Below are positions 900 through 41,017 of a stretch of DNA of 64,000 bases, in pieces. The stretch is from Spironucleus salmonicida (lineage: Eukaryota), in contig NC_090602.1 in assembly GCF_000497125.1 (NCBI RefSeq), forward strand, positions 1,302,001-1,366,000, written 5' to 3'. The position numbers and the translations under genes were made by a program. Each line of letters starts with the position of its first letter. The stretch's first letter is position 1. The notes beneath the pieces were generated by a model, which ran no database searches, had not been told where the DNA came from, and saw nothing but the letters and a program-made list of their open reading frames with translations.

Positions 900-1100
900 G
901 TGATCCGGCCGCTGCTGGACTGCACGCAGGGGGACGTGCTGGCATTCACCGGTGCGTTCGCGGTGGAATTCGTGAGCTCCGACGCAGCCGAGTGCGACTT
1001 CGCTGCACGGGGAGGTGGAAAGGAGAGCGAAAGGGGGAGAATCCGGCGGTTCCTAGACGGGCGCGACTACGGCTGGTTCGCGGAAATGGGCTATGAATGA
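900..1100 (+). pseudogene. 3' fragment of a TtcA/Ctu1-like tRNA thiolation gene (copy 1)
   Basis: VIRPLLDCTQGDVLAF...EC...SERGRIRRFL resembles the TtcA C-terminal IRPL region. No upstream SGGKDS PP-loop; in-frame TGA at 789. Confidence 0.55.
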
Positions 1101-1113
1101 GAAACGGGTACAA

Positions 1114-1464
1114 TCACTTGTTGGAGGAATACTTGGAGATGGCAGACTCGGCGTGAGACTGGGCGGCCTTGTAGAGCTCACCACCGTTAAGCACGAGTTT
1201 GGCGGCAGCGGTGATCTGGGACTTACCAATGGTGTTACGGTGGTGCTGTCTGGCGATCTGGGAGGCTTCGGAGGCGATTCTCTCGAAGAGATCGTTGACC
1301 ATGGAGTTCATGGCGGCCATGCACTGCTTGGAGACACCACAGTCAGCGTCCTTGCCCTGGAAGGCATCAGAGGCCTTGAGAACCTTGAGGATGTAGGTAC
1401 CATAGGTCTCTACTCTCTTCATCTTACGGGTAGCTTTGGCTTCAGGGGCGGATCCAAGGGACAT
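1114..1464 (-). CDS. H2B: Histone H2B (copy 1)
   Basis: ETYGTYILKVLK, MNSMVNDLFERIASEAS, TI..QI..AAKLVL.GEL.K.A, AISKY; 116 aa; ends AAG TGA. Confidence 0.97.
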   Translation of the reverse strand: MSLGSAPEAKATRKMKRVETYGTYILKVLKASDAFQGKDADCGVSKQCMAAMNSMVNDLFERIASEASQIARQHHRNTIGKSQITAAAKLVLNGGELYKAAQSHAESAISKYSSNK

Positions 1465-1472
1465 TTTAAATA

Positions 1473-1481
1473 GTGGAGTGG
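1473..1481 (-). promoter_or_regulatory. C-rich promoter motif CCACTCCAC upstream of H2B
   Basis: Lies 8 nt upstream of the ATG. CCACTCC also precedes RPS20, endosulfine, poly(A) polymerase and the genes at 32327 and 45226. Confidence 0.65.
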
Positions 1482-1691
1482 AAATGCCAATCTAGGCACC
1501 TGGGCCTAGTCACTTGCGCAGGCTCACTTTTGCGAAATCACTATACTCCACATTATTATATTGCATATACCTCGTATACTCGGGAGAAAGCGAAATAGCC
1601 CAAAGATGGCTGAGTCTACTTTTGTGTACACTTCATCCTACAACGGCGACTTAATGACTTCGCACCTAGGCAGGCAGCCTCCAGTGGTCAG

Positions 1692-2531
1692 TCAGATAGC
1701 ACGATCTCTGATGCTCTACCACGCCATTAACTCACAAATCACGCTGCCGGCGACACACCTGGCGCGCGTGCTCAAGGTGTACACGAACGCAGCATCGCAT
1801 AGCGGGTCGATTTCACACAGCAGCTGGTTCTTTAAGACTACAGCCCCTGTCTCAAGTAGACCTAACAGCAGTCCAGATACAGGCGCACATACGCTGAGCT
1901 GGCCTCGGCGATGGGTCACAGCATCCATTTTTCGGTTGAGGCACTCGCCGGACTCTGTCTACAGGCCCCCCTCATCAGACTCAATGACTCCTATCGGGTC
2001 TCCTATTTTTACAAACTCTCCAATCCCTCGTTTTGCTGTCCACCTCCCGCCGATCTCAGCGCGGGCCTCGCGTTCGAATGAATATCCACCGATTAGCTCT
2101 GGCTCCGACATTTTCTACTGTTTCTAGCGTGTTCCCGCATAGCGCCCCGACTTTTAGATTACAATACTGGCCGTTAGACCCTCTATTCCCCAATTGGTTG
2201 AAATTGTCACCCCTTGGAATTTGAATTGGGTGGGTGCGGTGTTAACAACAATATCATATTAGATATCGGATAGAAACTTAGACGAACTCGTCAAAACCGG
2301 TATAATATTGTCCACTAGGGCCTTGTTAAGCTGTTCTAGCGTCGTTACCCGACGTGCAGTTACCCCCTCTACCTCGAATCCTCCTACAAAAACCGCTTAG
2401 CAAAAGCTTTTCATTCGCTTTAGCGAAGTGGGATGATCTAGTTCTAGGCAGAATGCTGTGATTTATAACCGGGACAGGTAGATGGTCACGGCAGTGCCAA
2501 CCTCTCCCGCACCGATTACAAGGACTCTCAT
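1692..2531 (-). CDS. yqeB: YqeB-family selenium-dependent molybdenum hydroxylase system protein, 279 aa
   Basis: Continuous frame with TAR=Gln. N-terminal VLVIGAGEVGTAV, LELDHPTSLKR..SFCQAV..G..EVEGVTA; C-terminal LIGGYSFERE.RA, IGEFVKIGDPIG, APVSGLLLGLL, EIDP, TLSTRARCVAGSV. Confidence 0.82.
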
Positions 2532-3149
2532 TCGAAATAATATATGAATCAATATATAATAACGGCTTCCACTTACATCTGAAATTAAACATAGAATGCC
2601 TGCACATTCACTGCAATGATTTCCACCATTATTGACTCCTATGTACAATTCAACGATGCAAAATTCTATCCCACAAATTGATTTTATTATCCGTTGATTG
2701 TGTTAGCTCAACTTTGTTACTGCATTTAAGTCTTATAGGCAACATTGTTGAAGCCCTTAATATTTGTGAAGATTTGAAGCCATGATCGTAATTTCACATT
2801 AGTAACTAACGCAATAGTGTCCTTTTAGGCTTATAGAAATATATGATATATAGAAAACAAATGACAGGTGGTTCCAGTTAAAATAATGGCCTTAATTTAT
2901 ATTTAAGCTTCATACTGGAGAAAAGTTAGAGTTTTTCATTTTATTTATTTATACTAGCCGTTTATGAAATTTATATCGTACTCCTGACTGGCACTCGTAA
3001 TTTTCGATATTTAATCATCATTTTATCTGTGCCTCCAATGATAGAGCTTAAACACTACTGTTACATTTTTTGTTCTTTGGCAATTTTCTCAAACCGATGA
3101 ATTTATCCTGCTACACACCTTCACACCCTCAGCATCAGTTGAGGAGCGC

Positions 3150-3350
3150 GTGATCCGGCCGCTGCTGGACTGCACGCAGGGGGACGTGCTGGCATTCACC
3201 GGTGCGTTCGCGGTGGAATTCGTGAGCTCCGACGCAGCCGAGTGCGACTTCGCTGCACGGGGAGGTGGAAAGGAGAGCGAAAGGGGGAGAATCCGGCGGT
3301 TCCTAGACGGGCGCGACTACGGCTGGTTCGCGGAAATGGGCTATGAATGA
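3150..3350 (+). pseudogene. 3' fragment of a TtcA-like gene (copy 2)
   Basis: Identical to 900-1100. Confidence 0.55.
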
Positions 3351-3363
3351 GAAACGGGTACAA

Positions 3364-3714
3364 TCACTTGTTGGAGGAATACTTGGAGATGGCAGACTCG
3401 GCGTGAGACTGGGCGGCCTTGTAGAGCTCACCACCGTTAAGCACGAGTTTGGCGGCAGCGGTGATCTGGGACTTACCAATGGTGTTACGGTGGTGCTGTC
3501 TGGCGATCTGGGAGGCTTCGGAGGCGATTCTCTCGAAGAGATCGTTGACCATGGAGTTCATGGCGGCCATGCACTGCTTGGAGACACCACAGTCAGCGTC
3601 CTTGCCCTGGAAGGCATCAGAGGCCTTGAGAACCTTGAGGATGTAGGTACCATAGGTCTCTACTCTCTTCATCTTACGGGTAGCTTTGGCTTCAGGGGCG
3701 GATCCAAGGGACAT
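3364..3714 (-). CDS. H2B: Histone H2B (copy 2)
   Basis: Identical to copy 1. Confidence 0.97.
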   Translation of the reverse strand: MSLGSAPEAKATRKMKRVETYGTYILKVLKASDAFQGKDADCGVSKQCMAAMNSMVNDLFERIASEASQIARQHHRNTIGKSQITAAAKLVLNGGELYKAAQSHAESAISKYSSNK

Positions 3715-3941
3715 TTTAAATAGTGGAGTGGAAATGCCAATCTAGGCACCTGGGCCTAGTCACTTGCGCAGGCTCACTTTTGCGAAATCACTATACTCCA
3801 CATTATTATATTGCATATACCTCGTATACTCGGGAGAAAGCGAAATAGCCCAAAGATGGCTGAGTCTACTTTTGTGTACACTTCATCCTACAACGGCGAC
3901 TTAATGACTTCGCACCTAGGCAGGCAGCCTCCAGTGGTCAG

Positions 3942-4781
3942 TCAGATAGCACGATCTCTGATGCTCTACCACGCCATTAACTCACAAATCACGCTGCCGG
4001 CGACACACCTGGCGCGCGTGCTCAAGGTGTACACGAACGCAGCATCGCATAGCGGGTCGATTTCACACAGCAGCTGGTTCTTTAAGACTACAGCCCCTGT
4101 CTCAAGTAGACCTAACAGCAGTCCAGATACAGGCGCACATACGCTGAGCTGGCCTCGGCGATGGGTCACAGCATCCATTTTTCGGTTGAGGCACTCGCCG
4201 GACTCTGTCTACAGGCCCCCCTCATCAGACTCAATGACTCCTATCGGGTCTCCTATTTTTACAAACTCTCCAATCCCTCGTTTTGCTGTCCACCTCCCGC
4301 CGATCTCAGCGCGGGCCTCGCGTTCGAATGAATATCCACCGATTAGCTCTGGCTCCGACATTTTCTACTGTTTCTAGCGTGTTCCCGCATAGCGCCCCGA
4401 CTTTTAGATTACAATACTGGCCGTTAGACCCTCTATTCCCCAATTGGTTGAAATTGTCACCCCTTGGAATTTGAATTGGGTGGGTGCGGTGTTAACAACA
4501 ATATCATATTAGATATCGGATAGAAACTTAGACGAACTCGTCAAAACCGGTATAATATTGTCCACTAGGGCCTTGTTAAGCTGTTCTAGCGTCGTTACCC
4601 GACGTGCAGTTACCCCCTCTACCTCGAATCCTCCTACAAAAACCGCTTAGCAAAAGCTTTTCATTCGCTTTAGCGAAGTGGGATGATCTAGTTCTAGGCA
4701 GAATGCTGTGATTTATAACCGGGACAGGTAGATGGTCACGGCAGTGCCAACCTCTCCCGCACCGATTACAAGGACTCTCAT
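3942..4781 (-). CDS. yqeB: YqeB-family protein
   Basis: Identical to 1692-2531. Confidence 0.82.
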
Positions 4782-5399
4782 TCGAAATAATATATGAATC
4801 AATATATAATAACGGCTTCCACTTACATCTGAAATTAAACATAGAATGCCTGCACATTCACTGCAATGATTTCCACCATTATTGACTCCTATGTACAATT
4901 CAACGATGCAAAATTCTATCCCACAAATTGATTTTATTATCCGTTGATTGTGTTAGCTCAACTTTGTTACTGCATTTAAGTCTTATAGGCAACATTGTTG
5001 AAGCCCTTAATATTTGTGAAGATTTGAAGCCATGATCGTAATTTCACATTAGTAACTAACGCAATAGTGTCCTTTTAGGCTTATAGAAATATATGATATA
5101 TAGAAAACAAATGACAGGTGGTTCCAGTTAAAATAATGGCCTTAATTTATATTTAAGCTTCATACTGGAGAAAAGTTAGAGTTTTTCATTTTATTTATTT
5201 ATACTAGCCGTTTATGAAATTTATATCGTACTCCTGACTGGCACTCGTAATTTTCGATATTTAATCATCATTTTATCTGTGCCTCCAATGATAGAGCTTA
5301 AACACTACTGTTACATTTTTTGTTCTTTGGCAATTTTCTCAAACCGATGAATTTATCCTGCTACACACCTTCACACCCTCAGCATCAGTTGAGGAGCGC

Positions 5400-5600
5400 G
5401 TGATCCGGCCGCTGCTGGACTGCACGCAGGGGGACGTGCTGGCATTCACCGGTGCGTTCGCGGTGGAATTCGTGAGCTCCGACGCAGCCGAGTGCGACTT
5501 CGCTGCACGGGGAGGTGGAAAGGAGAGCGAAAGGGGGAGAATCCGGCGGTTCCTAGACGGGCGCGACTACGGCTGGTTCGCGGAAATGGGCTATGAATGA
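5400..5600 (+). pseudogene. 3' fragment of a TtcA-like gene (copy 3)
   Basis: Identical to 900-1100. Confidence 0.55.
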
Positions 5601-5613
5601 GAAACGGGTACAA

Positions 5614-5964
5614 TCACTTGTTGGAGGAATACTTGGAGATGGCAGACTCGGCGTGAGACTGGGCGGCCTTGTAGAGCTCACCACCGTTAAGCACGAGTTT
5701 GGCGGCAGCGGTGATCTGGGACTTACCAATGGTGTTACGGTGGTGCTGTCTGGCGATCTGGGAGGCTTCGGAGGCGATTCTCTCGAAGAGATCGTTGACC
5801 ATGGAGTTCATGGCGGCCATGCACTGCTTGGAGACACCACAGTCAGCGTCCTTGCCCTGGAAGGCATCAGAGGCCTTGAGAACCTTGAGGATGTAGGTAC
5901 CATAGGTCTCTACTCTCTTCATCTTACGGGTAGCTTTGGCTTCAGGGGCGGATCCAAGGGACAT
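5614..5964 (-). CDS. H2B: Histone H2B (copy 3)
   Basis: Identical to copy 1. Confidence 0.97.
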   Translation of the reverse strand: MSLGSAPEAKATRKMKRVETYGTYILKVLKASDAFQGKDADCGVSKQCMAAMNSMVNDLFERIASEASQIARQHHRNTIGKSQITAAAKLVLNGGELYKAAQSHAESAISKYSSNK

Positions 5965-6191
5965 TTTAAATAGTGGAGTGGAAATGCCAATCTAGGCACC
6001 TGGGCCTAGTCACTTGCGCAGGCTCACTTTTGCGAAATCACTATACTCCACATTATTATATTGCATATACCTCGTATACTCGGGAGAAAGCGAAATAGCC
6101 CAAAGATGGCTGAGTCTACTTTTGTGTACACTTCATCCTACAACGGCGACTTAATGACTTCGCACCTAGGCAGGCAGCCTCCAGTGGTCAG

Positions 6192-7031
6192 TCAGATAGC
6201 ACGATCTCTGATGCTCTACCACGCCATTAACTCACAAATCACGCTGCCGGCGACACACCTGGCGCGCGTGCTCAAGGTGTACACGAACGCAGCATCGCAT
6301 AGCGGGTCGATTTCACACAGCAGCTGGTTCTTTAAGACTACAGCCCCTGTCTCAAGTAGACCTAACAGCAGTCCAGATACAGGCGCACATACGCTGAGCT
6401 GGCCTCGGCGATGGGTCACAGCATCCATTTTTCGGTTGAGGCACTCGCCGGACTCTGTCTACAGGCCCCCCTCATCAGACTCAATGACTCCTATCGGGTC
6501 TCCTATTTTTACAAACTCTCCAATCCCTCGTTTTGCTGTCCACCTCCCGCCGATCTCAGCGCGGGCCTCGCGTTCGAATGAATATCCACCGATTAGCTCT
6601 GGCTCCGACATTTTCTACTGTTTCTAGCGTGTTCCCGCATAGCGCCCCGACTTTTAGATTACAATACTGGCCGTTAGACCCTCTATTCCCCAATTGGTTG
6701 AAATTGTCACCCCTTGGAATTTGAATTGGGTGGGTGCGGTGTTAACAACAATATCATATTAGATATCGGATAGAAACTTAGACGAACTCGTCAAAACCGG
6801 TATAATATTGTCCACTAGGGCCTTGTTAAGCTGTTCTAGCGTCGTTACCCGACGTGCAGTTACCCCCTCTACCTCGAATCCTCCTACAAAAACCGCTTAG
6901 CAAAAGCTTTTCATTCGCTTTAGCGAAGTGGGATGATCTAGTTCTAGGCAGAATGCTGTGATTTATAACCGGGACAGGTAGATGGTCACGGCAGTGCCAA
7001 CCTCTCCCGCACCGATTACAAGGACTCTCAT
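6192..7031 (-). CDS. yqeB: YqeB-family protein
   Basis: Identical to 1692-2531. Confidence 0.82.
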
Positions 7032-7649
7032 TCGAAATAATATATGAATCAATATATAATAACGGCTTCCACTTACATCTGAAATTAAACATAGAATGCC
7101 TGCACATTCACTGCAATGATTTCCACCATTATTGACTCCTATGTACAATTCAACGATGCAAAATTCTATCCCACAAATTGATTTTATTATCCGTTGATTG
7201 TGTTAGCTCAACTTTGTTACTGCATTTAAGTCTTATAGGCAACATTGTTGAAGCCCTTAATATTTGTGAAGATTTGAAGCCATGATCGTAATTTCACATT
7301 AGTAACTAACGCAATAGTGTCCTTTTAGGCTTATAGAAATATATGATATATAGAAAACAAATGACAGGTGGTTCCAGTTAAAATAATGGCCTTAATTTAT
7401 ATTTAAGCTTCATACTGGAGAAAAGTTAGAGTTTTTCATTTTATTTATTTATACTAGCCGTTTATGAAATTTATATCGTACTCCTGACTGGCACTCGTAA
7501 TTTTCGATATTTAATCATCATTTTATCTGTGCCTCCAATGATAGAGCTTAAACACTACTGTTACATTTTTTGTTCTTTGGCAATTTTCTCAAACCGATGA
7601 ATTTATCCTGCTACACACCTTCACACCCTCAGCATCAGTTGAGGAGCGC

Positions 7650-7850
7650 GTGATCCGGCCGCTGCTGGACTGCACGCAGGGGGACGTGCTGGCATTCACC
7701 GGTGCGTTCGCGGTGGAATTCGTGAGCTCCGACGCAGCCGAGTGCGACTTCGCTGCACGGGGAGGTGGAAAGGAGAGCGAAAGGGGGAGAATCCGGCGGT
7801 TCCTAGACGGGCGCGACTACGGCTGGTTCGCGGAAATGGGCTATGAATGA
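7650..7850 (+). pseudogene. 3' fragment of a TtcA-like gene (copy 4)
   Basis: Identical to 900-1100. Confidence 0.55.
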
Positions 7851-7863
7851 GAAACGGGTACAA

Positions 7864-8214
7864 TCACTTGTTGGAGGAATACTTGGAGATGGCAGACTCG
7901 GCGTGAGACTGGGCGGCCTTGTAGAGCTCACCACCGTTAAGCACGAGTTTGGCGGCAGCGGTGATCTGGGACTTACCAATGGTGTTACGGTGGTGCTGTC
8001 TGGCGATCTGGGAGGCTTCGGAGGCGATTCTCTCGAAGAGATCGTTGACCATGGAGTTCATGGCGGCCATGCACTGCTTGGAGACACCACAGTCAGCGTC
8101 CTTGCCCTGGAAGGCATCAGAGGCCTTGAGAACCTTGAGGATGTAGGTACCATAGGTCTCTACTCTCTTCATCTTACGGGTAGCTTTGGCTTCAGGGGCG
8201 GATCCAAGGGACAT
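7864..8214 (-). CDS. H2B: Histone H2B (copy 4)
   Basis: Identical to copy 1. Confidence 0.97.
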   Translation of the reverse strand: MSLGSAPEAKATRKMKRVETYGTYILKVLKASDAFQGKDADCGVSKQCMAAMNSMVNDLFERIASEASQIARQHHRNTIGKSQITAAAKLVLNGGELYKAAQSHAESAISKYSSNK

Positions 8215-8441
8215 TTTAAATAGTGGAGTGGAAATGCCAATCTAGGCACCTGGGCCTAGTCACTTGCGCAGGCTCACTTTTGCGAAATCACTATACTCCA
8301 CATTATTATATTGCATATACCTCGTATACTCGGGAGAAAGCGAAATAGCCCAAAGATGGCTGAGTCTACTTTTGTGTACACTTCATCCTACAACGGCGAC
8401 TTAATGACTTCGCACCTAGGCAGGCAGCCTCCAGTGGTCAG

Positions 8442-9281
8442 TCAGATAGCACGATCTCTGATGCTCTACCACGCCATTAACTCACAAATCACGCTGCCGG
8501 CGACACACCTGGCGCGCGTGCTCAAGGTGTACACGAACGCAGCATCGCATAGCGGGTCGATTTCACACAGCAGCTGGTTCTTTAAGACTACAGCCCCTGT
8601 CTCAAGTAGACCTAACAGCAGTCCAGATACAGGCGCACATACGCTGAGCTGGCCTCGGCGATGGGTCACAGCATCCATTTTTCGGTTGAGGCACTCGCCG
8701 GACTCTGTCTACAGGCCCCCCTCATCAGACTCAATGACTCCTATCGGGTCTCCTATTTTTACAAACTCTCCAATCCCTCGTTTTGCTGTCCACCTCCCGC
8801 CGATCTCAGCGCGGGCCTCGCGTTCGAATGAATATCCACCGATTAGCTCTGGCTCCGACATTTTCTACTGTTTCTAGCGTGTTCCCGCATAGCGCCCCGA
8901 CTTTTAGATTACAATACTGGCCGTTAGACCCTCTATTCCCCAATTGGTTGAAATTGTCACCCCTTGGAATTTGAATTGGGTGGGTGCGGTGTTAACAACA
9001 ATATCATATTAGATATCGGATAGAAACTTAGACGAACTCGTCAAAACCGGTATAATATTGTCCACTAGGGCCTTGTTAAGCTGTTCTAGCGTCGTTACCC
9101 GACGTGCAGTTACCCCCTCTACCTCGAATCCTCCTACAAAAACCGCTTAGCAAAAGCTTTTCATTCGCTTTAGCGAAGTGGGATGATCTAGTTCTAGGCA
9201 GAATGCTGTGATTTATAACCGGGACAGGTAGATGGTCACGGCAGTGCCAACCTCTCCCGCACCGATTACAAGGACTCTCAT
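8442..9281 (-). CDS. yqeB: YqeB-family protein (terminal copy, unique upstream flank)
   Basis: Identical CDS; repeat identity stops about 50 bp upstream of its ATG. Confidence 0.82.
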
Positions 9282-18465: not shown

Positions 18466-20421
18466 TCACTTTCTTTAGAAATTTTTCTTAATACTAGGTG
18501 CTGACGTTAATACAAAGCTATCTAGATTACCTTCGACCTAAGGAGTAGATCCACCAAGTTTTCCTTTTAATCTTTTTTAGTTTTTCAAATATTCCGACTC
18601 AGACATTGTAGAACTTCTAGTGAAAAATGATGAACCCAGGGATGTTTAAGATTAAGTTAGTAACTATGATACCATAATTTTTTGATTAGTTAAAACTTGG
18701 AGTTCAGTTTATGTTTACACGCATTTACCTTAACAAGCTATACTGTATAATTATTTTATTAATTATTTAACATCATTTGAAAGATTTTACTAATTTAATG
18801 TTTGTAAATATTATATTACTTATTAAGTATGTGGACAATAGTTTTCTTTTGTATTAGTCGATAAATCATTAAGCGTAAGGCCAGGAGAAAATAATTAGTT
18901 ATTATTATAATTTGTATCTGTATTTGGTTAACCGTTGGCTAAGTTCTACCCAGGCTAACCGTGGGCTAAGTTCTGCCCAGACTAACCGTTGACTAAGTTC
19001 TGCCCAGGCTAACCGTTGGCTAAGTTCTACCCAGACTAACCGTTGGCTAGGTTCTACCCAGACTAACCGTTGACTAGGTTCTACCCAGGCTAACCGTTGG
19101 CTAAGTTCTACCCAGGCTAACCGTTGACTAGGTTCTACCCAGACTAACCGTTGGCTAAGTTCTACCCAGACTAACCGTTGACTAGGTTCTACCCAGGCTA
19201 ACCGTTGACTAGGTTCTACCCAGACTAACCGTTGACTAGGTTCTACCCAGGCTAACCGTTGGCTAAGTTCTACCCAGGCTAACCGTTGACTAGGTTCTAC
19301 CCAGACTAACCGTTGGCTAAGTTCTACCCAGACTAACCGTTGACTAGGTTCTACCCAGGCTAACCGTTGACTAGGTTCTACCCAGACTAACCGTTGACTA
19401 GGTTCTACCCAGGCTAACCGTTGACTAGGTTCTACCCAGACTAACCGTTGACTAAGTTCTACCCAGACTAACCGTTGGCTAGGTTCTACCCAGACTAACC
19501 GTTGACTAGGTTCTACCCAGACTAACCGTTGACTAGGTTCTACCCAGACTAACCGTTGGCTAAGTTTTTGTTAAATTAGTTCCTATTTATTATAACATTT
19601 TCTTCAAACAAATTCCTTTTGTCTTATTTGGAAGATGTGATAATAAAACTAGGTATACCATCAGAAACTTATTCCAATTTAAACTAAGTACTCATGGTTT
19701 CTTTTTACTTTTATTTTGTTTATTTCTTATCATTATGCTGATGCTTTTTTTATTTAGCTATAGTATCTTTAACTTTAGTCACCTCTAGTGCAGAATCCTC
19801 ATTATCAATTACTTATTCTGTTTGGATTTAATTATCTTATTAAAGTATAATTTATTTTCCCTGTTACTATAGTTAAATTTCAAGTTACCTCACATCTTCA
19901 TATAATTATTCTTATGTCTTTAAACTAGACAAATATTAAGAATATAGGTTATCAGTTTGATCGACATTAGCGATACCATCATCTGGTTTATATAGCATAT
20001 TATTATTGTTTCTTTAATTAAGCTATTCTCTCAGATTTTAAATAATTTACGTATAATTTTTAACTGGAAATTTACTTAATGACAATATTTATTATAATTA
20101 TAATTCATAACTAGTTATAATGCTTTCCTGCATATTACATTTTTGAATAAGTGTGTTTTGATTATTTTGAACTGGAAAAGAAATATTAAAATTAGAAATA
20201 CTGTCTTGCATATACTTTAACAGTTCAATTTCTGCTGAATTTATCATTGATTAATAAATAGGAAGAATATTTTTTGGTTTTTCATGATCAGTGAGAGTGT
20301 TACAGTTTAATTTAGGTTCAAATAAAACATGCAATGGCCTATCTTATATTTATTTTCGCAAATTATAAAATATTTAAATGATTTACTTTTGAACACTTTA
20401 TGAAAAAAAACTTTAATCCAT
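18466..20421 (-). CDS. Hypothetical protein with a 9-aa tandem repeat, about 651 aa
   Basis: Same frame on both sides of the 27-bp array, which reads NL(A/V)NGQ(S/P)GQ; ends AAG TGA. Confidence 0.7.
18929..19565. repeat. 27-bp coding minisatellite, about 23-24 copies
   Basis: Unit ctaaccgttg(a/g)cta(a/g)gttctacccag(a/g), with three recurrent dimorphic sites. Confidence 0.97.
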
Positions 20422-20524
20422 TTTTTTATTATATTTATTATATACTTATATAAAATTAAAGAATTGTTATTAATAAAAACCTTATATATTAAATTACTTC
20501 ATTTAGGTTTTGGATATCTAATAA

Positions 20525-26172: not shown

Positions 26173-26583
26173 TATTTTTATGACTGATTTTAACAATATA
26201 ATAAATAATAGTATAGGGTTTATTCAAAGATAATGATTTTATCTGCTACTGCAAATCTTTAAACTAATTGATAATTTAAAATATACGATAATTAAGTTAT
26301 AAATATAAATTAAATATATATAACAATAAAATGGAAATTTATATCTCTGTAATCGTAATCATAATATGTTGATATCTAAGGTTGTACATATTCAACAGCA
26401 ACATCAATTTATATATATTTGAGAAGATCATTCGAAAGATACACTCTACGCTAAGCAGTAAGACTCATCCGTACTAATCATTTGATTACCGAAGGAGTGA
26501 AAATAGCAAAGACATTCAAATTCTGAAATTTCTATTTTTAATTAATTATATATAATATTGGTCTCCTCTAAAACAATTAACTA

Positions 26584-28470
26584 ATGATCCCCCTGTTATA
26601 TCTCACTACACTTAAACCGCACATCTAATACCCTCTGATGAAACAACCTAAACATTAGATTAAAACATATATAGCATAATAAATTAAGAATGCTAACGTA
26701 CCACCATCTACTACTCCACCGTCAGTTCTCGTTGTACCAGGTTTTGCGGACTCTGATAATGCTGATAGAGGTATTGCAGCATCTTTAAAAACAGTAGCAG
26801 CCACAATAGATCAATATGATACTATTATTATTGTAGGTGCCCATTTTCCAGACACGTGCGGATCATCACCACCGTCTCGACCTTTGACCGCCTGGTGGGG
26901 GGACGAAGTGGAAACTTCATTAGGAAATTTTGATGTGGATGTTGATTTACGCGCAAAATTCGGACGATCAACTGGTTAAATATAACAAGATAACATCACA
27001 GATGAGTTGGTTTCGGAAAGTAGTTTTTACGATTAAATTTTCTTGTGGACACGTGCTCTATTTCCTGATAAAAAACCTAAAACTAAAGTCCTTCCATTGC
27101 TCATTCATGCCACTTTGCGCGATTAAGTATAGTTTTCGGCTTAAGTGCTTAGCGATAACTTATTTAAGCCAGCCGAAGGCGGATAATATGGAGTCGCAGG
27201 TGATGGCAAAAGATACTTGGTCATCATACCTATTTAGGTATCATAAGGATTGGAATTATATTAAAATATTTATATTGAGAATATTTTGCTAGATTTAACG
27301 TTTAACAATAAAGTGCAAGATTTTGAGTAATGGCTTTATTATTTGACTGGTAATACTGGAGCTACATTCTCTAAAACTATTGCAAGCTAGATTTTAGTTG
27401 TCAGATTAAGTTAATTAGCTTCTAGGGCAGTTCCTCACAATAAACCGACTGATCCTAACTGGGAATGGCGAATGTTAGATTATTATACAACTTATGATAG
27501 TTTAATGGATATACAAAAAATGAAGGATTCAGATTATATTTCTATTGACGAAGATTAATTAGAAAAAACAAGTAAAGTTTTCACTGAAGAGAACGACTCT
27601 CCAAAGGGGCATTATATTTATTATTCGATGTCGCTTAGTTTAGAACCCCCTCTGCATTAATCATAGACAACAAAAGGCAAAACTGCAAAAATGCCAGTAC
27701 CAGTTTCTTCACCTGAACCGTTTTCTTAGGGAGCTATGAATGAGCTAATGATTGCTGCTCAATTAACAATGCAAGGGAAAAAATATAATAAAAAAGAAGA
27801 ATTCTAAAAGTATAAATCGCTGTTGGCAAAACCTGCTCCATTTTCAATTAGAGTATATGTTCTAGCAGATCATTCACATGAGTAGTAAATAATTAACGAT
27901 ATGATTAAGAAAAACGTTTTTAATGATCCTAATCACATTAAGAATTTAACAGGGTGTTGTGAAGAACGTGTTTTATTTGAAGAGAAAATTGTGAACTTCT
28001 TCCCTAACGAATCTGTTATTCAAAGTGTAATTTCTAACACGAAAAAATTATATTAGGAAAAATTATCATATTCTTCTTTAAGAAAATTCGAGAAGCAGTT
28101 GTAATAAAAGTATAAAGAATTAGTTGCATCTGGTGATCTTCCTAAGAGTAAATTAAAGGAGTTAGACTTTAATCTTAAACAAAATTTAATTATTGAGATC
28201 TAGGTTTTCCACTCTTGGGAGTATACTGAGTTATTTAAGCTTACAGAAGCTAAAGGCTCATTCATTACCCTTTGGGATGGAAAGACCGCAGTATGTGAAG
28301 TGCCTGATACTAGGCCAGGTGTTCCACATATCATATTCTTTAGACTAACCCAGTGTTCTCTTAAGGCCGGGTTAGAGCCATGGGATTGGTAGCGTGCAAA
28401 AGTTCATACTTATTCTCGTACTCGCTTAACAAAGCCAGTCTGGTAATTTGTACCTAAAGATGAACTCTGA
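26584..28470 (+). CDS. Memo (AmmeMemoRadiSam B) plus AMMECR1 (AmmeMemoRadiSam A) fusion with C-terminal KDEL, 628 aa
   Basis: Memo-like TIIIVGAHF, W...VETSLGNFDVDVDL, KVLPLLI; AMMECR1-like LTGCC, IIEIQV, KAGLEPWDW; ends PKDEL TGA. Confidence 0.72.
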
Positions 28471-39739: not shown

Positions 39740-41017
39740 TCACCATATTGTAATGTCAACCTCAGCTCCTGTGTTAATATTTTCAAGAAATACTTACCCA
39801 TCTTCTAAAATTACTTTGACATCCTCTTAGCCTTATACAAATTTCGCATTTGTTGCAAATAACTTCCAATATTGTGAAATTTCAATTTTTGATCTAGCAG
39901 AAATTTCTCCTGTAACAAATTTTAGGGACAGCGACTGATTCTCAAAGTAAAATGTTTATTTGACATGTGTCCCAAAAACAGCCGAAAAATATGGATAACT
40001 AAGTTATTAAATAATTTCAGGTTACTATAAAAGCGATATTGCATTAAGGTCTCCATACCCTTTTAAAGAAGGATAAATCCACGTTTTACCACTTATTTAT
40101 GTAAGCTATTACTTTATAATACTAAAGTCTCTTCCGAATTAACCTATAATAAAATTAGATTAAGTATTATCTTCTACAGCTTAAAAATTACTTTTAAATT
40201 TGTCTAATATTTTTGTATTGTCAATATAATTATAAATTAGGCAATTATCAGATATTATTTCACCAAATTTATCAAATACATCATTGATCGCCCCTGAAAT
40301 CAGAATAGATTTATTTGTATTTATACTTTGTAAAACTTTAGAATAAAACTAAGGTAAAATATCTGAATTCAGATTATTGATATAATTCCCATATTATGGT
40401 TCTGTAAAAGGTATATAACTAATAATGTTATCAAAATAATCAAATTCCTTTATCACAACTTTCCAAAATTACTAAATGATGTCCATAAAGCTATCATTAA
40501 AATATAAATGTTCAACTCCATTAATATTATAATAAGTTTATTCTGGAGTTATAAGTTTACACTGATCTTAGTTTATGGATCCGTTACTATTTCTAGTTAT
40601 CTGTTGCAATAATGGATATGGAAATTCATGAGATGAATCTGTGGGTAAAGTTTAGCCAAGTAACCACTATGGAAACCCTTAACCGCAATTTAGTTCACTT
40701 AGATGTTTTTAATACATTGCAATAATTACGCTAATGTTATTATCTTTACAAAGTTAAACTACTCTTTTCATCTCAGATAAATAACTTTAACTTGGAGTAT
40801 TATCTTTTTAAAATAATCCAGGTAGCATAAAGTTTAACTGTATAAGATTAATTTTGTTTCTTTATAAAAATTTAACATCGTCATATGAAAAGCTATTATC
40901 ATCGAATCCTAATTACGTTGGATAGTAAGGATATTATATAGGAGTAACTTGTACCCCTTTATAGTACATAAAAGCTTCACCATCAGTGTTACAAAGCTAT
41001 AGTATCAAGACTAACAT
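39740..41017 (-). CDS. GH5 endoglycoceramidase-like protein, secreted, probably inactive, 425 aa
   Basis: Short signal-like N-terminus; INLIQL, YL..MKRVV, CGQGFPQW, FWKVV..F...DNIISY..FTEP, FIIGQFG, WIY..LKGYGD. Confidence 0.72.

Follow-up and report, generated by a model that had tools for sequence, protein, structure and literature searches.

A KDEL-terminated Memo-AMMECR1 fusion of diplomonads, predicted to reside in the lumen of the endoplasmic reticulum

Memo and AMMECR1 are, to our knowledge, near-universal protein families of unknown biochemistry, for which a role on RNA has been guessed. MEMO1 holds iron through H49, H81 and C244 (PMC11081632), and the AMMECR1 signatures RGChG and DxRa have been described as the predicted active site of that family, its cysteine being the predicted catalytic residue (PMC2034487). 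Here we describe a protein of Spironucleus salmonicida that joins both folds. It is encoded in a stretch of 64,000 nucleotides (contig NC_090602.1, positions 1,302,001 to 1,366,000 of the forward strand), which we refer to as the window and within which all positions are counted. An earlier note, made from the letters of the window alone, had read the gene as a prokaryote-style fusion that was redirected to the endoplasmic reticulum (ER) by a hydrophobic leader and a terminal KDEL and became a pseudoenzyme there. We find that the protein keeps both folds, that its Memo half has very likely lost the ancestral metal chemistry, and that, to judge from its sequence, it is very probably a soluble resident of the ER lumen.

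The full-length structure was predicted from nine sequences (pLDDT 66.5, pTM 0.55), with residues 221-263 mostly below pLDDT 50. A Foldseek comparison of this model with human MEMO1 returned E ~2e-9, and alignment with MEMO1 7kq8 (VIA) gave Z 25.8 and an rmsd of 3.2 over 278 aligned residues, covering residues 6-354 at 11% identity. The next family after MEMO1 scored Z 15.3, and LigB-type dioxygenases Z 12-15. The Pfam Memo profile matches the fusion protein at E 0.006, its 16.3 bits lying below the gathering score of 27, and detects five of the nine family members, the best at E 7.1e-5. Profile-profile comparison supports the Memo half at 86-96%. For the fusion protein NCBIfam gave no match at E up to 10 and the PDB, searched by sequence, nothing below E 0.1; in the ESM Atlas the Giardia ortholog reached Memo clusters at 0.76, below the threshold for a lead.

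The C-terminal 265 residues were also folded alone (pLDDT 74.6). This half aligned with the AMMECR1 structure 1zq7 at Z 11.3 (rmsd 4.1, 172 aligned of 201 template residues), the only one of 48,161 chains to reach a Z of at least 5. Foldseek was concordant: all five matches below E 0.001 were AMMECR1 chains, with E 6e-6 to 2e-4 for 1zq7, 1vaj and 1wsc and the next match at 0.15. The Memo-then-AMMECR1 order proposed in the earlier note was thus borne out by the fold comparisons, and its suggestion of a Pfam check gave the weak Memo match described above and no match for the AMMECR1 half, with either the query or the nine-member family. Profile-profile comparison of this half was marginal (at most 26%), and its KAGL...W tail aligned with prokaryotic AMMECR1 at low probability. 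Two helical insertions (~430-460 and 496-534) and several invariant tryptophans mark the half. Peptidase C39-like clusters of the ESM Atlas (0.75-0.76, below the lead threshold) had come up for the C-terminal part and are not supported by the fold searches.

That the catalytic motifs are degenerate, also part of the earlier reading, was confirmed across the family. PHAG is absent from nine of nine members, the histidine of this motif (H49) being deleted relative to real Memo proteins, and the H81 column holds Phe or Tyr in all nine; the window protein, alone in the family, has a histidine one place before that column. The D189 and H192 columns contain Gln, Ala, Ser, Thr or Glu. The C244 column falls on T261 or A267 depending on the method, and no cysteine lies nearby in any member in any register tried. 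A ligand register set by eye (I217, S263, spacing 46) was not reproduced by later alignments. The Memo half has 90 invariant positions among 350 columns, and no histidine is invariant. In the AMMECR1 half RGCxG is missing from nine of nine members, and the place of DxRa reads xE(K/R/Y/T/H)L. We limit the word pseudoenzyme to the ancestral metal site and the RGCxG motif, since these are the losses established; the claim stands in that sense and leaves room for new chemistry, which is weighed below.

KDEL ends 13 of 13 sequences inspected and all nine full-length members, from Hexamita inflata to Giardia GL50803_21053, and it is also present in the divergent fragment P0055. The three residues that precede it vary within the family and the string KDEL-TGA is rare in the genome, so its conservation goes beyond chance. 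In the 14.5-Mb genome the pattern of KDEL or KDEF followed by TGA has ten matches against three for a control, six of them KDEF and four KDEL. The four KDEL-TGA sites belong to the fusion gene, to protein disulfide isomerase (PDI; Thioredoxin E 9e-26), to a protein at locus L024 and to one likely non-coding frame, and the first three end open reading frames (ORFs) with a hydrophobic leader. The genome also holds a KDEL receptor gene of the ERD2 type (PF00810, E 1.4e-47). Motif and receptor gene agree with ER retrieval in a lineage without stacked Golgi, as the earlier note had it, but this is not new, because a Giardia KDEL receptor has already been tagged and localised (10.64898/2026.02.17.706457). 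The L024 protein (L024:119-838, minus strand; 239 amino acids) has a short leader, a CEHC (CxxC) motif and KDEL, with no Pfam match at E 0.001; it is perhaps a further unannotated ER resident with a divergent thioredoxin fold.

Signal peptides were judged by hydropathy throughout. Residues 1-7 of the fusion protein, which begins MIPLLYLTTL, have a mean hydropathy of 2.13, compared with 2.06 for BiP, 3.06 for PDI and 2.81 and 2.20 for two other xDEL proteins of the genome, all four with leaders of 7-8 residues, and with -0.46 to 1.03 for seven presumed non-secreted proteins. The Memo fold match begins at residue 6. Clear signal peptides are present in seven Giardia-type sequences (best 7-residue hydropathy 2.9-3.3), and none has a transmembrane segment, the best internal 19-residue hydropathy being 1.0-1.7. 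Divergent signal peptides have been reported for S. salmonicida (PMC3916229). As a general observation, secretory proteins of this genome carry signal peptides of ~7-9 residues (Met, five or six hydrophobic residues and a small residue), far below the usual length, with BiP, PDI, the proteins at L024 and L060 and that of window 39740-41017 (minus strand) as examples; BiP ends in NDEL, and an FKBP-like protein (by eye) in QDEL.

A word-indexed search recovered nine full-length family proteins including the query, at 43-60% identity, the nearest named relative being that of H. inflata (60%). The orthologs include Giardia intestinalis GL50803_21053 with its assemblage orthologs, G. muris GMRT_14850, H. 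inflata and a further hexamitid-like record, and all named members are annotated as hypothetical. Searching 1.84 billion representatives with a HMMER profile gave 26 matches; the 12 inspected all belonged to the family, in part as fragments and in part with greater divergence, and none of these 12 was evidently a bacterial Memo. A second word-indexed search gave 15 matches, longer forms of the divergent fragment P0043 had no word-indexed matches, and pattern searches of prokaryotic genomes and metagenomes gave 153 and 221 matches, none of them confirmed. The family appears confined to diplomonad-like sequences, and other fornicates may be missing or too distant. The nine full-length sequences share 146 invariant columns, including seven of 11 tryptophans.

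The Giardia orthologs have housekeeping, stage-independent expression, with FPKM values of 84, 86 and 89 in the trophozoite, cyst and excyzoite of G. muris (row in the supplement of PMC7641422) and 12.6-89.6 across four isolates of G. intestinalis (row in the supplement of PMC3610916). The Giardia protein was detected in one of three encystation-vesicle and none of three peripheral-vesicle fractions (PMC3986054, Table S1), a protein set that its authors describe as rich in ER proteins. As the Spironucleus genome has three credible KDEL genes, and the fusion gene is single-copy (one match in a genome search), stage-independent and conserved from Giardia to Hexamita, it is likely to be a core part of the diplomonad ER. 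Within the literature searched, which did not take in the main Memo superfamily survey, we found no main text that names the Giardia gene ids or a secretory Memo-AMMECR1 protein. Memo and AMMECR1 were met side by side in a single paper, on an unrelated subject, and AmmeMemoRadiSam is named in six papers, one time in each.

For comparison we collected prokaryotic Memo and AMMECR1 loci from four phyla and 12 single genomes (at most 30 loci per sampling, one locus excluded). Leaders were counted in 5'-complete frames, leaving out four frames open at the 5' end, and many of the fusions come from one phylum. On these terms a hydrophobic leader precedes the first domain in 27 of 33 fusions, against three of 51 stand-alone Memo and none of 45 stand-alone AMMECR1 proteins. 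The signal-bearing fusions keep the PHAG-type, SDxxH, RGCxG and DxRF motifs (28 of 28), and 17 of the 28 have a lipobox-like cysteine. Among the frames neighbouring the fusions (39 scanned, 54 extracted) nine belong to the radical SAM family TIGR04337. The eight with a visible start carry twin-arginine leaders, five canonical and three with one Lys; a tenth such gene, beside L136, lacks one, as do all eight TIGR04337 genes with a visible start that lie beside stand-alone or leaderless genes. Judged by these leaders, an exported form of the AmmeMemoRadiSam system exists in bacteria. Our literature searches found nothing on a radical SAM protein of the TIGR04337 family exported by the twin-arginine (Tat) route.

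Several observations on these bacterial loci stand on their own. TIGR04337 genes with a twin-arginine leader beside a signal-bearing fusion are found at L134, L184-L188, L200 and L244, and three of them are followed by an RlmI-like 23S rRNA methyltransferase gene. At L192 and L196 a stand-alone Memo frame begins with an export leader. L192 has the look of an exported fusion locus duplicated in truncated form, in which the radical SAM gene is broken. The Memo domain of a planctomycete exported fusion (L139) is sister to eukaryote-type MEMO1 (97, quick tree), which may be of interest for the origin of eukaryotic MEMO1.

Because the exported bacterial form exists, the diplomonad protein may have been on the secretory route from the start, and on this point the earlier note, which has it redirected, may be wrong. 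Only two features, the KDEL end and the missing catalytic residues, clearly belong to the lineage. We lean, at somewhat better than even chances, towards an exported bacterial Memo-AMMECR1 fusion that was taken up before the split of Giardia and hexamitids; such a protein would have kept its membrane route, gained KDEL and lost its partners. The trees were built without a eukaryotic AMMECR1 sequence, the mixture-model tree being the quick one, and in both of the free trees the family falls among the exported fusions or next to them, outside the eukaryote-type clade. The alternative is the same ER pseudoenzyme arising from a native fornicate fusion of MEMO1 and AMMECR1, to which a signal peptide and KDEL were added, with the likeness to bacteria being convergent. 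We consider this unlikely; several findings nevertheless speak for it or against the bacterial origin. The approximately unbiased (AU) test (LG+G4, 27 of 50 rows, 2000 replicates, which is fewer than advised) rejects only one of six constrained placements, and a grouping with eukaryote-type MEMO1 is retained at p-AU 0.117, as are placements with stand-alone Memo and with archaea. The stem of the family is ~8.5 changes per site long. In profile comparisons the Memo half of the family scores 96% with stand-alone prokaryotic Memo, 94.5% with eukaryote-type MEMO1 (E 7.8e-8, 239 columns) and 89% with the exported fusions, the per-sequence medians being 2.9, 1.3 and -0.4 bits in the same order. Cys92, following the H81 motif as is common in eukaryote-type MEMO1, matches a cysteine in 21 of 26 eukaryote-type and none of 19 exported-fusion sequences, and the genome yielded no further gene for Memo or AMMECR1 in searches able to see recognisable copies. 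On the other hand, a native fusion needs three new events, two of which the bacterial fusion already supplies, and its tree is 11.7 log-likelihood units worse than the best. The segment equivalent to D189-C244 is 43-49 residues in the family, depending on the register, whereas it has at least 55 in 27 of 28 eukaryote-type sequences (themselves picked by motif) and a prokaryotic mode of 41. A canonical AMMECR1 also persists in Giardia as a gene of its own (PMC2034487, supplement file 2). The prokaryote-style origin claimed at the outset is therefore plausible from domain order, leader and free trees, and unproven in view of the AU test.

Taking uptake of the exported fusion as the origin, we give about an even chance to the reading as a whole: a soluble housekeeping protein of the ER lumen that keeps both folds but not the ancestral chemistry, and binds clients. 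The protein would be imported co-translationally by its N-terminal signal peptide, ultra-short in hexamitids, as its sequence and the in-genome controls suggest; it would fold, probably with a C571-C591 disulfide, and cycle through the KDEL receptor to be held in the ER. Its Memo half, stripped of the iron ligands, would work without iron or copper catalysis and without a radical SAM partner. It may then act as a holding or sorting factor for secretory clients, which would sit in the AMMECR1 cleft and in what is left of the Memo cleft and could be unfolded polypeptides, short glycans or glycolipids. We think binding rather more probable than new catalysis, with the reservation that the client role is one that we infer. 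Qiu reportedly described in 2008 the binding of peptide in the vestigial site of MEMO1, which offers a precedent. Diplomonads have a reduced set of ER quality-control factors. Calnexin/calreticulin and ERO1 were not found in this genome, by searches run without a positive control; STT3 is present, and a glycan-binding role is therefore kept among the possibilities.

Other explanations would change the role or the location. It is possible, if unlikely, that the protein is a remodelled ER enzyme whose AMMECR1 cleft retains a site for thiol or acid-base chemistry (C459, E466, H543-S-W-E546, D565, R586, R604 and H608), working for example in disulfide exchange with PDI or in group transfer onto a lumenal substrate. 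C459, C571, C591, H543 and H608 are invariant in nine of nine members, the sequences L-T-G-C-C of the window protein and G-Q-L-G-D-M-C of Giardia lie next to the expected LRGC place, and C459 comes just 7-9 residues ahead of where the AMMECR1 cysteine, predicted to be catalytic as noted, would be expected, a global alignment with weak support (probability 3%) matching the two; the failure to find ERO1 would also fit. Thiol chemistry through C459 is thus possible from the alignment, and this weighs against a pure binding role. In the model, however, the second strand runs at 463-471 and C459 lies in an inserted loop with pLDDT below 50; besides the absence of RGCxG there is no conserved CxxC, conserved cysteines of a lumenal protein are most simply structural, and P0003 has no C92. 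An equation of C591 with the bacterial CxKAG cysteine was dropped, being one residue out of register. More improbable is that the hexamitid protein is cytosolic, its leader being no signal peptide, or only transits the ER. The three H. inflata records, as annotated, all start without a hydrophobic leader, and the leader of the window protein is weak. H. inflata nevertheless keeps KDEL like all other members, BiP of the same genome has an equally short leader, and the signal peptides of the Giardia-type sequences are clear. The proposal that the hydrophobic N-terminus serves ER entry is therefore upheld by Giardia and by the likeness to BiP and PDI, and not by the H. inflata records.

The slightest chance of all we give to the idea that the protein still serves a working AmmeMemoRadiSam pathway whose radical SAM partner is too diverged to detect. 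Our family searches are blind to strong divergence and exclude only recognisable copies, since the same searches missed the fusion gene itself. The partner search envisaged in the earlier note nonetheless came back empty: TIGR04337 gave no candidate in the genome (the control was found in eight of 14 genomes, and the search could overlook a copy that had diverged strongly), nothing matched a Tat-type bacterial radical SAM query, and no spermidine-synthase-like gene was found. Five radical SAM genes are present and by eye look like MiaB/MtaB, HydE, Elp3, HydG and a SPASM protein, with no evident secretory leader, and the metal ligands of the fusion protein are lost. Because it does not work as either parent enzyme does and lacks the motifs by which they are recognised, we class it as a variant of the Memo-AMMECR1 fusion and not with the functioning AmmeMemoRadiSam systems. 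Among the radical SAM genes, those like HydE and HydG (L004 and L006; by eye) fit a hydrogenosome-bearing hexamitid, and the SPASM-type gene (L007, G000:C7:367089-370469) has its best matches in archaea, at up to 42% identity, so that lateral transfer is likely.

We tentatively suggest that diplomonads may have turned the exported subunit of a bacterial cell-envelope radical SAM system into a core factor of the ER lumen. If so, a Memo or AMMECR1 protein would for the first time be known from the secretory pathway of a eukaryote; it would make up for something missing from a reduced ER folding machinery, and the nature of its ligand would indicate the class of extracytoplasmic substrate of the bacterial system, a protein, glycan or lipid rather than RNA. 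A stripped lumenal version and the exported bacterial fusions together argue for a ligand of this kind, outside the cytoplasm and other than RNA, and in Giardia it could be sought in a tractable cell. In any case a hypothetical protein of a well-studied parasite now has folds and a testable location. No relative was found outside diplomonad-like sequences, and a lineage-specific dependency is possible.

The coordinates of the gene and its parts are collected in the table. Read with NCBI table 6, the frame contains 30 TAA/TAG codons translated as Gln and ends in VPKDEL; in the standard code no ATG-initiated ORF of at least 100 amino acids covers the gene in this frame. An in-frame TGA lies 18 codons upstream of the ATG, with no Met between. 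The element TCTCCTCT is a candidate for the C-rich promoter motif described ~10 bp upstream of S. salmonicida start codons (PMC3916229), the likeness being judged by eye. An intron near the start was considered and rejected: a branch-like ACTAA occurs at 26580, but no AG follows it.

Features of the Memo-AMMECR1 fusion gene, with positions in the window
Feature	Position	Strand	Basis or remark
C-rich element TCTCCTCT, candidate promoter motif	26562..26569	+	ends 14 nt 5' of the ATG; fits the start codon
Memo-AMMECR1 fusion gene, 628 aa, single exon, single copy	26584..28470	+	NCBI table 6 translation, then TGA
Predicted ultra-short signal peptide, residues 1 to ~8, cleavage site inferred	26584..26607	+	hydropathy
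Memo-fold domain, residues ~9-355, without the MEMO1 iron ligands; Cys92 in 8/9	26608..27648	+	fold and alignment
Variable basic Pro-rich linker, residues ~356-377	27649..27714	+	pLDDT <50 at 358-377; 1/20 columns invariant
AMMECR1 (double RAGNYA) domain, residues ~378-622; RGCxG absent	27715..28449	+	fold and motifs
KDEL ER-retrieval signal and TGA	28456..28470	+	invariant in 9/9 full-length members

The neighbours of the gene are a TCP-1 chaperonin, an SNF2 helicase and an ORF without a Pfam match, which suggest no functional link, and an operon-like context was set aside. Elsewhere in the window, a 2250-bp unit is repeated head to tail about four times at positions 1093-9200; its first three copies are identical, and every copy contains a histone H2B-like ORF (1114-1464, minus strand; by eye) among other genes. 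In a Gln-rich ORF at 18466-20502 (minus strand) a Gly-Gln-Asn unit of nine residues is repeated in tandem more than 20 times, and the collagen and RTX Pfam matches of this ORF were rejected as low-complexity artefacts. The ORF at 39740-41017 (minus strand) encodes a probably secreted protein like glycoside hydrolase family 5 (Cellulase E 2.7e-5).

Set beside known systems, the diplomonad protein is most like the exported bacterial fusions (TIGR04336 followed by TIGR04335) in its domain order, both folds, N-terminal leader, short charged linker and KAGL...W tail. It differs from them in its lost motifs, helical insertions and KDEL end, in having no partner that we could find, and in lying below the detection of both families. 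With human MEMO1 (PF01875; 3bcz, 7kq8) it shares the fold of its N-terminal half and the cysteine after the H81 motif; but MEMO1 stands alone, is located in cytosol and nucleus and holds iron or copper with its three ligands (PMC11081632), whereas the diplomonad protein has none of the three, is fused and bears a signal. Its C-terminal half has the double RAGNYA fold of the AMMECR1 family (PF01871; 1zq7, 1vaj, 1wsc), from which it departs by its two helical insertions and by RGChG and DxRa being lost or reduced to xExL, and its predicted lumenal site fits poorly with the RNA-modification role proposed for that family. BiP and PDI of diplomonads resemble it in their short leader, xDEL end and single-step housekeeping expression. 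Unlike them, the fusion protein has no chaperone or thioredoxin domain, and would bring to the ER a pair of folds that our literature searches did not find described in a secretory pathway.

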